32,000 nt of DNA from Chitinophaga jiangningensis (GCF_900142605.1 NZ_FRBL01000001.1:633836-665835); one strand, 5' to 3'. Shown: positions 205 to 23,144, numbered from the stretch's first letter. Notes: generated by a model from the letters alone, not told the origin. A program made the numbers and translations.

Positions 205-311
205 TTTTTTCACGCAAAGCTTTGCTGGCGGCGTAAGGGGCAAAGGATTGGTGCGATCTTTTTTTCTCGCAGAGCAGCATAAGAGGCATAAGCAGCAAAG
301 GATTGTGTTTT
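205..311 (+). repeat. Tandem pair of a ~50-bp dispersed repeat (T-run, CnCGCAnAG, GCATAAG/CAGC sub-repeats, AAGGATTnTG): degenerate copy 205-253, good copy 259-311
   Basis: 259-311 (tttttttctcgcagagcagcataagaggcataagcagcaaaggattgtgtttt) aligns by eye with 20903-20955 (tttttttcacgcaaagcagcataagcagctaagcagctaaggattatgtttt). It also aligns with the reverse complement of 21476-21515. Confidence 0.75.
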
Positions 312-2820: not shown

Positions 2821-3444
2821 ATGCAAATATTAAAACGCCTGTATAATGCACCAGTAACCCTTTCACTGATAGCAGTGAATACAGTCATCTTTTGCATAAT
2901 GGCGATCAGTGGGCATGAACTGTGGTGGGGCAATGCGGATGACCTACTACTCCGGGGCGCCAACTACTGGCCCCTTACGGTAGTGCAACACCAATACTGG
3001 CGTTTATTTACCAGTATGTTTCTGCATGCTGGCCTCTGGCATTTGTTTACCAATATGCTGGGATTACTCATCGCCGGCATATTCCTGGAACCCATTTTAA
3101 AAGGACCTAAATTTTGCCTCGTGTACCTGGTTACAGGCCTGGTGGCTGATTATGCCAGCATATGGTTCCATCCCGATGCCGTAGGCGTAGGCGCATCAGG
3201 GGCCATATTCGGCATTTATGGTGCCTTTCTGGCGCTGCTAACCACCCCCCTGTTTAAACGGTCCGTAAAAATGCCTTTCCTCATTTTTATAGCCTTATTT
3301 GTATGTTTAAATATCATCGTGGCATGCTTTACCGTAGGCATAGATAATATTGCGCACCTTACCGGCTTTGGCTGCGGCATACTCACCGGCTATTTACTAT
3401 ACTTTACTTTATCCAAAGCAGATGCAAGCCGGTTGCCAAACTAA
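2821..3444 (+). CDS. Rhomboid family intramembrane serine protease
   Basis: Polytopic protein with the rhomboid motifs WRLFTSMFLHAGLWHLFTNM, GASGAIFG (catalytic Ser) and AHLTGFGCG (catalytic His). Confidence 0.9.
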   Translation: MQILKRLYNAPVTLSLIAVNTVIFCIMAISGHELWWGNADDLLLRGANYWPLTVVQHQYWRLFTSMFLHAGLWHLFTNMLGLLIAGIFLEPILKGPKFCLVYLVTGLVADYASIWFHPDAVGVGASGAIFGIYGAFLALLTTPLFKRSVKMPFLIFIALFVCLNIIVACFTVGIDNIAHLTGFGCGILTGYLLYFTLSKADASRLPN

Positions 3445-3468
3445 TCGCAAGACGAAAACTTAAATACT

Positions 3469-3476
3469 TACTTTTG
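3469..3476 (+). promoter_or_regulatory. Candidate -7 box (TAnnTTTG) for the 3492 lipoprotein gene
   Basis: tacttttg at 3469-3476, 15 nt before the ATG at 3492. No clear -33 element. Confidence 0.3.
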
Positions 3477-3491
3477 CAGATCAGCAACTTA

Positions 3492-4244
3492 ATGAAGAAT
3501 ATGTACAAAAACCTGTTTAACCTGGCAGCACTGGCAGTAATGCTCTGGAGCTGCGGACAGCAGAAAACACAAAAAACACCACCAACGGATGCTGCCGGCT
3601 CACAAATGGCAGACGTACCGGCACTTTCTGACACGCCAATCGACACCATGGAGCTGGCAGGAAAAACTTACCTGATCTATACCATCGATTCTACCGTATT
3701 TGAAAACTTCAAAGTACAACCGCAGGATACCAGCGAAGCCCAGGCACTTGCAAAAGATTCTACTGTAAAAAGAACAGGTAACAGCTTACAGTTTAAACTA
3801 CAAAATGGTAAAATTGCCACCCTCACGGACAAAGACAGCGATGCCGAAAATGAAGGCGACTTCGTGCATTTCTCTTATGTGAGCAATTACCCGGAAATCA
3901 ACCGCAAAGGTATCATCGCATATTATTACGAATCGCAGGATTTCCTGCTGCTGGACACCCGCACGGGCGATACCCTGCACATCTGGACTGAACCCATCTT
4001 CTCCCCGGATAAAAAACATATCCTCTGCGCCAGCATGGACCTGGTGGCAGCGTTTATGCCAAACGGTTTCCAACTGTATAATATCGAAAAAGACAGTATC
4101 CGCTACATGGGCGAGACCAACCTGGAAACCTGGGGACCCACAGAAACAAAATGGGTGGATGCTAAAACGATCCTCTGTCGCTATATCAGTATCGACGACG
4201 AAGGAACCACCCAATCCACACATGTAAAATTGGTGATGCAATAG
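3492..4244 (+). CDS. Hypothetical lipoprotein
   Basis: ORF 3474-4244 begins at TTG. The first ATG at 3492 gives MKNMYKNLFNLAALAVMLWSC-GQQ, a signal peptide with a lipobox Cys. No family recognised. Confidence 0.7.
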   Translation: MKNMYKNLFNLAALAVMLWSCGQQKTQKTPPTDAAGSQMADVPALSDTPIDTMELAGKTYLIYTIDSTVFENFKVQPQDTSEAQALAKDSTVKRTGNSLQFKLQNGKIATLTDKDSDAENEGDFVHFSYVSNYPEINRKGIIAYYYESQDFLLLDTRTGDTLHIWTEPIFSPDKKHILCASMDLVAAFMPNGFQLYNIEKDSIRYMGETNLETWGPTETKWVDAKTILCRYISIDDEGTTQSTHVKLVMQ

Positions 4245-19711: not shown

Positions 19712-20809
19712 TTACGATTGAGATTTATTGAAATCGTCAGAGTGTGCCGGTCCGTCGATCTTCGACAGGTCGATGGTAGGCCTGTTTACCTCACTCTGCG
19801 TATGGATATCGAACAGCAGTTTTGGCTGGCGGCCATCCAGTACTTCTACAAGCGGGTCTTTCGGTTTCACGGTATTTACATAGTGACCCTGAGAGATAAC
19901 GCTGTGGCGGTCAATCTTACGAGGTCCTTCTATGGTCCAATCTTTTACGTCTTTCTTTTCGAAGCGGCAGGTATCACAGATCCAGTTTTCCACTTCACCG
20001 TATTGGTCTTTGCGGGCGGTTACGCGGAATACTTCATCACCACGCATCCAGAGTGCCACTTTACCGCAGCATTTAGGATTATCGCAATTGCGGTGAGCAT
20101 CCACAGGTTTGAGGAACCATACACGGTTTTTGAAACGTGCCGTTTTATCGGTGAGCGCACCTACCGGACAAACATCGATTACGTTACCGATGAAATCATT
20201 GTCCAGGTTATTCTGGATATAAGTGCTGATCTGGGAGTGATCACCTCTGTCGAGTACACCGTGCTCACGTGATGCTGTCAGCTGATCCGCTGTGAATACG
20301 CAACGGTAGCAGAGGATACAGCGGGTCATGTGCAGCTGGATATGATCACCGAGATCTATTTTATCAAATGTTCTGCGTTTAAATTCGTAGCGGGTACCTT
20401 CAGCGCCGTGTTCGTAGCTGAGGTCCTGCAGGTCGCACTCACCAGCCTGGTCACACACCGGGCAATCCAGCGGGTGGTTGATGAGCAGGAATTCCACGAT
20501 GCCTTTGCGGGCTTCCAGTACTTCCGGAGAGGTGATATTGGCTACTTCCATACCATCCATTACAGTAGTACGGCAGCTGGCTACCAGTTTAGGCATAGGG
20601 CGCGGATCCGCTTCTGAACCTTTCGTCACTTTTACCAGGCAGGTACGGCATTTACCACCACTACCCTGCAGTTTGGAATAGTAACACATAGCCGGTGGCA
20701 CTACATCTCCTCCAATACCACGTGCTGCATTCAAAATGGTAGTACCTGGTTCGACCTCCACGGAGATGTTATCGATCTTAACCTTGAATAATTTTTTTTC
20801 CTCCGCCAT
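19712..20809 (-). CDS. nuoG: NADH-quinone oxidoreductase subunit G, short form (Fe-S N-terminal part only, 365 aa)
   Basis: [2Fe-2S] cysteines (MCYY...KCRTC...ASC), HPLDCPVCDQAGEC (N5-type) and CILCYRC...CPVGA (N4-type), then a cysteine-containing remnant (CDNPKCC...CDTC). There is no long molybdopterin-oxidoreductase-like domain. Confidence 0.9.
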   Translation of the reverse strand: MAEEKKLFKVKIDNISVEVEPGTTILNAARGIGGDVVPPAMCYYSKLQGSGGKCRTCLVKVTKGSEADPRPMPKLVASCRTTVMDGMEVANITSPEVLEARKGIVEFLLINHPLDCPVCDQAGECDLQDLSYEHGAEGTRYEFKRRTFDKIDLGDHIQLHMTRCILCYRCVFTADQLTASREHGVLDRGDHSQISTYIQNNLDNDFIGNVIDVCPVGALTDKTARFKNRVWFLKPVDAHRNCDNPKCCGKVALWMRGDEVFRVTARKDQYGEVENWICDTCRFEKKDVKDWTIEGPRKIDRHSVISQGHYVNTVKPKDPLVEVLDGRQPKLLFDIHTQSEVNRPTIDLSKIDGPAHSDDFNKSQS

Positions 20810-20850
20810 TGTTTTGATTTTTATACTCGCAGTGCGAGCGCTTCCTTTTA

Positions 20851-20955
20851 TTTTTTTCTCGCAGATAGCTTATTGGGCCAGGAGCGAGGATTGTGTTTTG
20901 TCTTTTTTTCACGCAAAGCAGCATAAGCAGCTAAGCAGCTAAGGATTATGTTTTG
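20851..20955 (+). repeat. Tandem pair of the ~50-bp repeat: degenerate copy 20851-20899 and good copy 20903-20955 (left arm of the cassette)
   Basis: tttttttctcgcagatagcttattgggccaggagcgaggattgtgttttg followed by tttttttcacgcaaagcagcataagcagctaagcagctaaggattatgttttg. This is the same architecture as 205-311. Confidence 0.75.
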
Positions 20956-20972
20956 TTGATTAAGTTCCGATT

Positions 20973-21001
20973 ATAGAGATAAAAACGAATTTTATCTCTA
21001 T
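20973..21001 (-). other. 12-bp perfect hairpin downstream of the GxxExxY stop, with no U-tract
   Basis: atagagataaaa (20973-20984) pairs with ttttatctctat (20990-21001), with a 5-nt loop. Confidence 0.55.
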
Positions 21002-21042
21002 TCTTTTGTTGTTAAACCATTGAACTTTTCCTTAGTGTTATA

Positions 21043-21420
21043 TTACAAATTGCACACGACACGGTGTATCCCATCTTTTATCAGCTTAACATTGAAATTC
21101 ACTAATAATCCGAGTTTTATCTCAGATAATTTGAGATATGTATAGAGCTGTTTGAAATGAACCTCTTCCAATGCTTTTAAGCTTTTAATTTCAACAATAA
21201 CTTTATTGTTAATTATAATATCCGCTTTGAAAGCATTTTCAATAATGATTTCATCATGTTCAATATCGACTCCCACTTCTGTCCTGACAAAGAAACCATT
21301 CCTTTCGAGTTCATATACAAGTAATCGATGGTAAACCGATTCAAACAAACCAGGTCCATACCGCTGGTGCAAATGAAAACAAAGATCTACAATCTCTTTC
21401 GAGATTTCATTTTCAGTCAT
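21043..21420 (-). CDS. GxxExxY protein (PDDEXK_3 / PD-(D/E)XK nuclease-fold family, function unknown)
   Basis: 125 aa. GLFESVY matches the GxxExxY motif, and ADIIINNKVIVEIKS gives D...ExK. ATG at 21420, TAA at 21043-21045. The gene is markedly AT-rich relative to its neighbours. Confidence 0.85.
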   Translation of the reverse strand: MTENEISKEIVDLCFHLHQRYGPGLFESVYHRLLVYELERNGFFVRTEVGVDIEHDEIIIENAFKADIIINNKVIVEIKSLKALEEVHFKQLYTYLKLSEIKLGLLVNFNVKLIKDGIHRVVCNL

Positions 21421-21475
21421 GGATGAATAATTAAAAGGTTAACAAATTCTGAAAACAAACAAATTTCTTATCAAA

Positions 21476-21516
21476 CTCCTTTGCTGCTTATGCTGCTTTG
21501 CGAGCAAAAAAGATCT
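21476..21516 (-). repeat. Inverted copy of the ~50-bp repeat (right arm of the cassette)
   Basis: The reverse complement reads gatcttttttgctcgcaaagcagcataagcagcaaaggag. The core 21483-21502 is the exact reverse complement of 20912-20931. Confidence 0.85.
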
Positions 21517-21526
21517 ACTCCATTTC

Positions 21527-22885
21527 CTAAACTGTAGCCGCAACCGGCAACGGATCAGCATAATGCGCTAAACCGAAGTTGCGGCGCTGCGCTTCTTCCG
21601 GATTTTTCACATGCCATTCAAACTCGTCACGGAAGTGGCGGATAGCTGCTGCCACCGGCCATGCTGCCGCATCTCCCAGCGGGCAGATGGTGTTACCTTC
21701 GATCTTGCGCTGGATGTCCCAGAGCAGGTCGATATCACTCATCTTACCTTTACCTGTTTCTATATTTTTCAGCACTTTTTCCATCCAGCCGGTACCTTCA
21801 CGGCAAGGGCTACACTGACCACAGCTTTCGTGGTGATAGAAGCGTGCGAAAGTGAGCGTGTTTTTAACGATACACTGGTCTTCGTCCATCACGATGAAAC
21901 CGCCGGAACCCAACATGGAGCCGGTTGCGAAACCGCCATCAGCCAGGCTTTCATAGGTCATCATCCTGGTTTCACCCTTCGCTGTTTTCAGCAGCAGGTT
22001 GGCAGGCAGCACCGGTACGGAAGAACCACCCGGGATACATGCTTTCAGACGTTTACCGTTTCTGATACCACCGCAGTATTCATCAGAGAAGATGAATTCT
22101 TCCACAGAGATATTCATTTCGATTTCGTATACCCCTGGTTTGTTGATATTACCGCAGGCAGAAATCAGTTTGGTACCGGTAGATTTACCTGTACCGAGTT
22201 TAATATATTCATCGCCGCCGTACTTAATGATTGGTACTACTGCTGCGAGGGTTTCAACGTTGTTTACCACTGTAGGGCACTGCCAGAGGCCTTTTACAGC
22301 CGGGAACGGAGGTTTGATACGTGGGTTACCGCGTTTACCTTCCAGGGATTCGATGAGCGCAGTTTCTTCACCGCAGATGTAAGCACCGGCACCGCGTTGT
22401 ACATATATTTCCAGGTCAAAACCGGTACCCTGAATGTTTTTACCCAGCCAGCCATTATTTTTCGCTTCGGCGATGGCTTGTTCCAGGATATCAGGAATCC
22501 AGGCGTATTCGCCGCGGATATAGATGTAGCAAGCGTTTGCTCCGAGGGTGAAGCTGGAGATCAGCAGCCCTTCGATCAGCAGGTGTGGGATAAATTCCAT
22601 GAGGTAGCGGTCTTTAAAAGTACCGGGCTCAGATTCATCCGCATTACAAACGAGGTAACGGGGAACACCTTCAGGCTTGGCAATGAAGCTCCATTTCATA
22701 CCGGTAGGGAAGCCGGCACCACCACGACCTCTGAGGCCACTCTTTTTCACTTCTTCCAGAACAGCTTCAGGCCCCATGCTTTTCAGCGCTTTTTCAGCTG
22801 CAGCATAACCGCCGTTTCTCCGGTAAGTATCGTAATACCGGATGCCTTCAATATGTGCGTTTTCTAAAAGTAATTTGCGTCCCAT
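21527..22885 (-). CDS. nuoF: NADH-quinone oxidoreductase subunit F (FMN and NADH binding, N3 cluster)
   Basis: GLRGRGGAGFPTGMKWSF (FMN/NADH site) and ESCGQCSPCREG ([4Fe-4S] N3). Confidence 0.96.
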   Translation of the reverse strand: MGRKLLLENAHIEGIRYYDTYRRNGGYAAAEKALKSMGPEAVLEEVKKSGLRGRGGAGFPTGMKWSFIAKPEGVPRYLVCNADESEPGTFKDRYLMEFIPHLLIEGLLISSFTLGANACYIYIRGEYAWIPDILEQAIAEAKNNGWLGKNIQGTGFDLEIYVQRGAGAYICGEETALIESLEGKRGNPRIKPPFPAVKGLWQCPTVVNNVETLAAVVPIIKYGGDEYIKLGTGKSTGTKLISACGNINKPGVYEIEMNISVEEFIFSDEYCGGIRNGKRLKACIPGGSSVPVLPANLLLKTAKGETRMMTYESLADGGFATGSMLGSGGFIVMDEDQCIVKNTLTFARFYHHESCGQCSPCREGTGWMEKVLKNIETGKGKMSDIDLLWDIQRKIEGNTICPLGDAAAWPVAAAIRHFRDEFEWHVKNPEEAQRRNFGLAHYADPLPVAATV

Positions 22886-22952: not shown

Positions 22953-23144
22953 TCAGGCTCTGCTGGCTCCCCGCTTTGCGATGCGGTTGCCAAGGCGGTA
23001 CAACAGGTATCCGGCGCTAACGCCGAAAACAAAGGAAACAAAAGCATTCTCAATTCTCCACAAAGCTGTGAATAACCCCATCAGCAATATGGTTTCGATA
23101 ATGAAGAACTTATTTTGCAGTAGTAAACCTGTCAATAACCTCAT
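22953..23144 (-). CDS. Candidate 63-aa two-helix membrane micro-protein in the nuoE-nuoF gap
   Basis: Same strand as the operon. The ATG lies 21 nt after the nuoE stop, and the stop lies 67 nt before the nuoF ATG. Two hydrophobic segments (LLTGLLLQNKFFIIETILLMGLFTALW and AFVSFVFGVSAGYLLY) precede a basic tail. No family recognised. Confidence 0.4.
   Translation of the reverse strand: MRLLTGLLLQNKFFIIETILLMGLFTALWRIENAFVSFVFGVSAGYLLYRLGNRIAKRGASRA

Follow-up and report, generated by a model that had tools for sequence, protein, structure and literature searches.

A GxxExxY nuclease-family gene between inverted octamer arrays in the complex I operon of Chitinophaga jiangningensis, one copy of a widespread hairpin cassette

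What is a small nuclease-family gene, bracketed by inverted repeats, doing between two genes of respiratory complex I? The question is raised by the nuoF-nuoG junction of Chitinophaga jiangningensis, studied here in a window, the whole stretch of 32,000 nucleotides (nt) that was analysed (GCF_900142605.1 NZ_FRBL01000001.1:633836-665835). In the nuo operon, which lies on the minus strand, the end of nuoF (21527) and the start of nuoG (20809) leave a gap of 717 bp between them. According to the open reading frame (ORF) table, 10 of the 12 other nuo junctions measure 11-56 bp, the exceptions being nuoD-nuoE (132 bp) and nuoE-nuoF (280 bp). An earlier reading of the sequence alone (the sequence-only reading) had pointed to this gap among short junctions, to an AT-rich GxxExxY gene within it and to perfect 20-bp inverted repeats on either side, and had proposed a selfish or domesticated cassette. 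The gap and the junction lengths were as described, and it is well supported that window positions 20901-21513, the whole cassette, are one copy of a widespread hairpin cassette in which a GxxExxY gene stands between inverted arrays of a motif of about 8 nt.

The inverted repeat was confirmed, 20912-20931 being exactly reverse-complementary to 21483-21502; the 20-mer had 0 matches in each of 100 shuffles of the window, and the repeat reaches 38 nt at 89% identity (20901-20938 with 21476-21513). Exact pairing held, and uniqueness of the sequence did not, the repeat being a lineage variant of a period-8 tandem motif array found across phyla. In each arm a T-run comes first and then 3-4 units of about 8 nt in tandem (nnGCnAAG, of the nCGCAAAG type), and Tandem Repeats Finder assigned a period of 8 with 3.4 copies to the tandem at 20916-20943 in the downstream arm. 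The family pattern is a T-run, C-A/T-CGCAAAG and then 2-3 further nnGCnAAG units. The assembly of Chitinophaga sp. sic0106, used as the comparison genome, encodes a GxxExxY protein 99% identical to that of the window and has the same order of genes around the cassette, and its upstream arm is longer by one 8-nt unit. Orthologues in four other genomes again stand between inverted arrays, which differ in sequence and are alike in repeat unit. The leader part TTTTCAGAATTTGTTAACC...CATCC ATG is shared with other Chitinophaga species and is missing from the compact cassettes of the Lacibacter type, in which the arms directly adjoin the start and stop codons, the arm ending 3 nt before the ATG.

The unusual window variant (GCAGCATAAG units) is present a third time, at 268-287 (within 205-310), the intergenic region there being unrelated and having no GxxExxY gene close by, and this copy shares a lineage-specific 9-nt unit with the cassette arms. 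Here the arm motif occurs twice in direct orientation, after which comes an 11-nt tandem repeat, TGCTGGCAATC (316-530), in 19.6 copies, and the region is situated upstream of rpsF (692-1108) with no associated gene. The sequence AAGGATTGTGTTTT, part of a direct repeat around the downstream arm of the cassette, also follows the solo copy at 296-314.

Homologues were obtained by a scan with the window protein as query, taking one genome per species, which gave 80 loci (50-72% identity) whose contexts were assigned by tblastn with the window nuo proteins. Arms were recovered by aligning the upstream flank of each locus to the reverse complement of its own downstream flank. Nearly every one of the 80 GxxExxY genes, in Bacteroidota, Ignavibacteriota, Acidobacteriota and Verrucomicrobiota, has the same inverted arrays on either side, and the arm consensus TTTCACGCAAAG-nCGCAAAG-nCGCAAAG was recovered from almost every locus. 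Arrays of the same motif at GxxExxY genes of other genomes and contexts bear out the proposal that ORF and inverted repeat form one unit. In a census of arrays of at least three units, covering 1.19 Mb of sequence centred on GxxExxY genes, 153 of 186 arrays (82%) were no more than 300 nt from a GxxExxY ORF, a zone that makes up 7.3% of the sequence. The co-localisation that the sequence-only reading had suggested was thus found as an enrichment of about 60-fold beside such genes. The commonest layouts are arm-gene-arm and hairpin-gene-hairpin, and the gene is co-oriented with both neighbours at 55 of 69 loci. The arrangement nuoF-GxxExxY-nuoG accounts for 22 of the 80 loci, in Chitinophaga, Lacibacter, Ferruginibacter, Flavitalea, Edaphocola and metagenome-assembled genomes, which makes 23 genomes when the window is counted; the rest are in other operons of the four phyla.

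The arrays also occur without the gene, at 205-310 in the window and at seven further loci (L080, L029, L046, L035, L101, L106 and L131). Genomes of the bacterial family to which the window belongs differ in the junction of a pyrimidine-catabolism operon at which the gene sits; orthologous junctions have a hairpin alone or are bare, and one of the copies is a pseudogene. The number of tandem complete 109-nt hairpins beside the gene varies (2, 3 or at least 5) between strains with an identical protein (L181-L184, downstream, at about 3380-3960). A neighbour-joining tree of 81 proteins, which mixes nuo-context and pyrimidine-operon copies, was not used as evidence of copying between loci because 125 residues resolve too weakly. 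Among other arrangements seen, L088 and L069 carry 7-10 tandem arm copies at a spacing of 34-42 nt. A second GxxExxY subfamily, about 42% identical (L044:6868-7248 and L045:8203-8433, the latter with an in-frame stop), has CACAAAG in place of CGCAAAG units, and copies at the nuoF-nuoG junctions L158, L166 and L177 have GCAGCG/GCAACG units; the motif may co-vary with the protein subfamily. Different tandem units of about 8 nt, ACGGATGA and GACAGTTG, make up further hairpins between genes (L045:4840-4960, the L116 junction and L010:3160-3225), which suggests a wider class of octamer-array hairpins.

The nuoF-nuoG junction was followed through relatives with NuoF 77-89% identical by a metagenome scan anchored on the NuoF C-terminus, which yielded 73 informative junctions. 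The search for empty sites, proposed beforehand, found bare, arms-only and differently occupied junctions: 27 of the 73 were bare (gap 6-60 bp), 11 held a GxxExxY gene (one without nuoG in the contig), 11 a TIGR02436 four-helix-bundle gene (two of them fragments) and four an AriA/AbiL-like ATPase with a partner gene. A further 3-5 were gene-less with CGCAAAG arms (L101, L106 and L131, with degenerate remnants at L144 and L179), and the remainder held other hairpin types or single unrelated genes. The junction is an insertion hotspot for alternative small cassettes too, and the motif type tracks the occupant gene. Arrays of the CGCAAAG type were present at 6 of 10 GxxExxY junctions under a strict pattern (GCAGCG/GCAACG variants at the other four), at 0 of 11 four-helix-bundle junctions and at 0 of 27 bare ones. 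The four-helix-bundle genes, which belong to the protein family of 23S ribosomal RNA (rRNA) intervening sequences (IVS), stand between inverted arrays of another octamer, GTCAAAAG/TTCAAAAG (L107, L108, L123, L130, L138, L149, L175 and L178), and TCAAAAG arrays were found at 8 of these 11 junctions and at no other junction type. The gaps of 1.6-2.3 kb at L120, L147, L168 and L171 each contain an AriA/AbiL/GajA-like AAA ATPase and a partner of about 187 amino acids (aa) with a weak AriB match, a defence-type pair in a complex I operon, and the junction therefore does accept defence-type genes.

The protein was assigned to the family claimed for it by matches to PF13366 PDDEXK_3 (E 1.2e-34, 119.7 bits against a cut-off of 22, model positions 2-117 of 117) and TIGR04256 GxxExxY (E 8.4e-36, 122.9 bits against a cut-off of 35, full length). 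The motifs read earlier from the sequence, G24-L-F-E27-S-V-Y30, D67 and E77-I-K79, are invariant over the 25 homologues by which the catalytic residues were judged, as is a C-terminal QxxxY motif, Q91-L-Y-T-Y95. A sequence search of the PDB gave no match, and a predicted model (AlphaFold, AF2, with a pLDDT confidence score of 89) and a fold search were therefore used. The best fold match was Cas4 SSO0001 (4ic1; E 9e-4, 29-31% identity over about 104 columns), followed by LHK-Exo, RecE and lambda exonuclease, and Cas4 profiles matched weakly (E 3e-4). The likeness to Cas4/RecB nucleases (SSO0001, PDB 4ic1; lambda exonuclease) extends to the E, D, ExK and QxxxY motifs. The window protein differs in having about half the size, with 125 aa, and only two cysteines in place of the four-cysteine Fe-S cluster of Cas4. 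Its neighbours are nuoF and nuoG, cas genes not being evident in the window, and it is regarded as Cas4-like in fold only and not filed as a member of Cas4. Sequence and model together predict a minimal Cas4/RecB-like PD-(D/E)XK nuclease with intact catalytic residues. The family is large, 12,478 clusters at 50% identity giving matches with E <= 0.001, and largely chromosomal: no match was found in PHROGs, no GxxExxY gene in phage genomes, and such a gene in 5 of 72,556 plasmids. No functional study of GxxExxY/PDDEXK_3 was found in the literature searched, of which coverage was incomplete. Several homologues (P0123, P0124, P0126, P0142 and others; 272-295 aa) carry two GxxExxY domains in tandem.

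Recent arrival does not agree with the age of the cassette, which retains its synteny in 23 Chitinophagaceae genomes and is subject to strong purifying selection. From nuo-context pairs with unsaturated synonymous divergence (dS), the ratio of nonsynonymous to synonymous divergence (dN/dS) of the cassette gene was 0.05-0.13, and between species its synonymous sites are saturated. In the pair L024/L032, dS was 0.43 for nuoF, 0.35 for nuoG and 0.53 for the cassette gene, with flanks of about 145 nt differing at 2-3 positions (about 2%), and in L023/L030 dS was 1.26-1.40 with flanks about 91% identical (about 9% diverged). Flanks far less diverged than synonymous sites imply strong constraint on arms and leaders, and purifying selection acts strongly on the protein and the arms alike. 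Divergence of the cassette and of its host are loosely coupled (r = 0.48). The window protein is 58-62% identical to other Chitinophaga copies and no closer to them than to those of other genera, which points to fast evolution or replacement of the cassette in the window lineage. The low G+C content of the ORF (0.30-0.345, against about 0.5 in nuoF and nuoG) was confirmed. In 80 of 81 loci the ORF lies about 9 points under the locus that holds it, and its G+C rises and falls with that of the host (r = 0.89); AT-richness is a property of the GxxExxY family and was rejected as a mark of recent import. It is well supported that the cassette is an old, mostly vertically inherited resident of the Chitinophagaceae nuoF-nuoG junction.

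Pairing between the arms was examined in the folded junction and by comparison of loci. In the 717-nt junction RNA the long-range stem was predicted in both minimum free energy (MFE) and centroid folds (z = -4.4). A promoter and terminator scan, in which nothing rose above shuffle expectation and the sigma-70 consensus of which does not apply to Bacteroidota, gave no terminator on the operon strand. Local-alignment scores, both optimised, were 20.6 for cognate arms and 13.0 for non-cognate arms (p = 2e-12). Over 33 arm pairs, pre-selected by alignment and thus biased towards pairing, 79.7% of cells paired, compared with 63.9% in shuffles and 38-50% in slid controls. Changes on both sides were seen in 32 of 38 pairs. 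The variable positions co-vary between the two arms. The core C-G-C-n-n-A-G is invariant, from which it follows that a sequence-specific reader acts too.

The explanation that we favour, giving it as a whole about an even chance, is that of a long-lived hairpin cassette, similar to both REPIN/RAYT systems and 23S rRNA IVS, in which a Cas4-like nuclease reads its own arms by a mechanism that we infer as follows. In single-stranded nucleic acid the arms would anneal to each other and form a stem of 20-38 bp, which the U/A runs would lengthen and whose loop would carry the gene. Within the nuo transcript this stem, free of a terminator, would permit an insert in the operon without polarity, would probably limit or gate translation of the nuclease, and would offer an RNase III site as in the 23S rRNA IVS. 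At the DNA level the nuclease would recognise the motif arrays of its own cassette, probably in the form of a hairpin or of single-stranded DNA, and may bind or cut the repeat. The partnership of nuclease and array would maintain the element and occasionally spread it. Spread could proceed by break-induced copying, in which the gene enters arms-only hairpins and the arms serve as homology, and by hairpin amplification. Such a partnership would resemble that of REPIN and RAYT, with a hydrolytic nuclease in place of the HUH transposase.

The likeness to repetitive extragenic palindromes (REP), their REPIN hairpins and the REP-associated tyrosine transposase (RAYT) lies in a small chromosomal nuclease-type gene between inverted copies of a short repeat, gene-less hairpin copies of the repeat elsewhere, long-lived vertical inheritance with near absence from plasmids and phages, and lineage-specific repeat variants (Bertels and Rainey 2011, PMC3116915; PMC3733652; PMC5581495). 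The differences are that RAYT is an IS200/IS605-like HUH/Y1 transposase and the present protein a predicted hydrolytic PD-(D/E)XK (Cas4-like) enzyme; that a REP is a short palindrome and the arm here a row of 3-4 tandem 8-nt units; that RAYT is typically single-copy, whereas several diverged gene copies per genome are frequent here; and that REPs are dispersed in hundreds, whereas most repeats of the gene-centred sample adjoin the gene. The IVS of 23S rRNA, known from Coxiella and Leptospira, have a 28-bp terminal stem cut by RNase III and an S23p/four-helix-bundle ORF (PMC4990558). They share with the window element a length of about 430-600 nt, an ORF of about 120 aa between terminal inverted repeats with a predicted 20-38-bp stem, a place inside an essential and highly transcribed unit, G+C under that of the genome, a single acquisition followed by vertical inheritance, and a four-helix-bundle family that sits with the same architecture at nuoF-nuoG in relatives. 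They differ in lying within an rRNA helix, whereas the window element occupies an mRNA intergenic junction between protein-coding genes, and in encoding a four-helix bundle where the window ORF encodes a predicted nuclease; we know of no description of IVS stems as octamer arrays. The lack of an HUH transposase and the position outside rRNA set the cassette apart from both systems. Free-standing homing endonuclease genes are similar in that a nuclease gene stands between conserved genes, with occupied (11/73) and bare (27/73) alleles at a fixed site, and is AT-rich relative to its flanks; unlike them, the cassette has flanking arrays, for which they offer no counterpart, and stable occupancy across a bacterial family, and empty-site cleavage is only hypothetical here. 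A search by family name, accession and repeat sequence found no description of the gene-plus-octamer-arms architecture in the literature, with incomplete coverage, and an earlier description is possible.

Several points weigh against the favoured explanation, among them the pre-selection of arm pairs given above. To our knowledge, hydrolytic PD-(D/E)XK enzymes cannot by themselves catalyse strand transfer. No binding or cleavage report for any member of the family was found in the literature searched. Arm co-variation could stem from lineage-wide homogenisation and not from selection for pairing. The same architecture is seen in the four-helix-bundle cassettes, whose protein is not a nuclease; a nuclease is therefore not required for it, and it may be independent of nuclease activity. 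No target-site duplication was seen, no direct repeat being visible outside the arms, and no near-identical copy was found at a second site, and so there is no sign of recent movement. The identical protein P0112, checked in many samples, was always in one context, and long vertical persistence under strong constraint fits a host-beneficial gene equally well. Finally, arm-like CGCAAAG/CGCGAAG arrays lie in three viral contigs (L012:1815-2935, L010:3226-3260 and L018:906-945) with no GxxExxY gene nearby in the stretch examined. Some of these viral-contig arrays are directly upstream of ribosome-binding sites; the arm pattern had 13 matches in viral contigs, of which about 10 are chance matches in coding sequence.

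The main rival, which we consider unlikely though deserving of weight, is that the arms act purely at the RNA level as in an IVS, a double-stranded stem in the nuo transcript allowing RNase III to excise or gate the insert, with the nuclease serving an unrelated role such as DNA repair and not reading the arms. It draws on the long-range stem in MFE and centroid folds, compensatory-type changes between cognate arms, co-orientation with a terminator-free operon, and the 23S IVS precedent of a 28-bp stem cut by RNase III, whose ORF family is also at this junction in relatives (PMC4990558). Pairing alone, however, leaves unexplained an invariant CGC..AG core across four phyla, the conserved imperfect pairing in L023/L030, the way in which motif type strictly follows gene family at a single site, the loci where the gene has a complete hairpin to each side, and solo copies outside operons. 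A domesticated defence or addiction module, in which the nuclease acts on foreign DNA or as a toxin, the arrays control expression and loss is costly enough for the cassette to persist, would accord with the weak Cas4 profile matches (E 3e-4), the AriA/AbiL-like ATPase pairs at the same junction in four relatives and the strong purifying selection. We hold it to be improbable, as there is no partner gene, no defence-system model matched above noise, the gene is absent from phage records and nearly so from plasmids, and there are often several copies per genome, placed in housekeeping operons and not in defence islands.

The strong form of the earlier idea, a recently inserted and currently active transposon or a MITE-like (miniature inverted-repeat transposable) element, is largely refuted and very improbable. 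Terminal inverted repeats, low G+C and a place inside an operon would suit it, but the same gene occupies the same site in 23 genomes of several genera with synonymous sites saturated between species, the low G+C is a family-wide offset that tracks the host, and the protein has no transposase fold; insertion sequences (IS) and MITEs are distinguished by a target-site duplication and multiple near-identical copies, and here neither a duplication nor an identical second copy was seen, while paralogues that share a locus reach only 32-42% identity. Hardly any credence is given to a complex I accessory factor, a true member of the nuo operon with a respiratory function, in spite of the conserved place and co-orientation between nuoF and nuoG across Chitinophagaceae and a protein more constrained than NuoG in one pair. 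Homologues equally close (50-62% identity) are found in unrelated operons and phyla, and at NuoF identities of 77-89% the junction is bare in 27 of 73 cases and holds unrelated genes in others; on these grounds, homologues in other operons and bare junctions in relatives, the role was rejected. What stands of the selfish or domesticated inverted-repeat cassette is the unit of gene and arms, the enrichment of arrays and the empty or alternative sites; what falls is recent arrival and AT-richness as a sign of import. Three outcomes had been named beforehand as counting against it, namely a mismatch to the family, a fixed cassette without empty sites, and repeats not enriched beside the genes, and none of the three was found.

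The hairpin cassette with a nuclease reading its own arms may have a wider frame. Possibly, though we would rather doubt than assert it, the GxxExxY/CGCAAAG and the four-helix-bundle (S23p/Avd-like)/TCAAAAG cassettes belong as separate branches to a single undescribed class of hairpin cassettes, ancient and semi-autonomous, in which each protein reads its own tandem-octamer arms and which colonises the loops of intergenic hairpins in operons (and, in the four-helix-bundle branch, 23S rRNA helices), spreading by copying into arms-only hairpins. If true, this would explain the origin of the 23S rRNA IVS and the function of two very large orphan families. The very large orphan family GxxExxY/PDDEXK_3 gains a testable DNA or RNA partner, since the conserved, selected and family-specific array of each gene is a concrete candidate substrate for biochemistry. 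The shared junction and architecture tie the rRNA IVS, a decades-old puzzle, to a broader class of operon-dwelling cassettes, and the REPIN/RAYT idea of a long-lived vertical partnership of repeat and enzyme is extended to another enzyme fold and to Bacteroidota, Acidobacteriota, Verrucomicrobiota and Ignavibacteriota. In genome annotation, an oversized junction within a conserved operon of these phyla is often a hotspot of insertion and not a regulatory region.

The features of the locus are given in Table 1.

Table 1 Features of the nuoF-nuoG junction and of the solo arm copies in the window
Feature	Position	Strand	Basis or remarks
nuoF, flanking host gene	21527-22885	-	Gene call
Upstream arm, nuoF side	21476-21513		T-run, then GCTCGCAAAG, then GCAGCATAAG and GCAGCAAAG units; perfect 20-nt core 21483-21502
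5' leader, 55-nt spacer from upstream arm to ATG	21421-21475	-	Sequence comparison
GxxExxY/PDDEXK_3 gene, 125 aa	21043-21420	-	Profile matches, fold model
A+T-rich hairpin, 12 bp perfect, just 3' of ORF	20973-21001		Repeat scan, MFE and centroid folds
Downstream arm, nuoG side	20901-20938		Reverse complement of upstream arm; perfect core 20912-20931
Direct repeat AGGATTRTGTTTTGT bracketing downstream arm	20887-20901 and 20942-20956 (span 20887-20956)		Repeat scan
Spacer from downstream arm to nuoG ATG	20810-20900	-	Lineage-specific; two small G+C hairpins
nuoG, flanking host gene	19712-20809	-	Gene call
Solo pair of direct arm copies	205-310	+	Same lineage-specific variant (…CTCGCAGAGCAGCATAAGAGGCATAAGCAGCAAAGGATT…), other intergenic region, no GxxExxY gene

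No T-run follows the 12-bp hairpin just 3' of the ORF, and the spacer before nuoG is not conserved in other Chitinophaga. A match to the Rfam family GP20-a just upstream of nuoG (20794-20892, minus strand) was rejected as an explanation, its 25.7 bits (E 0.054) lying below the gathering score of 47.2. The 280-bp nuoE-nuoF gap contains a hydrophobic ORF of 63 aa (22953-23144, minus strand) with no Pfam match; genes of 62-68 aa are called at the same spot in sic0106, C. oryzae and Lacibacter, and the ORF may encode a small membrane protein of the operon.

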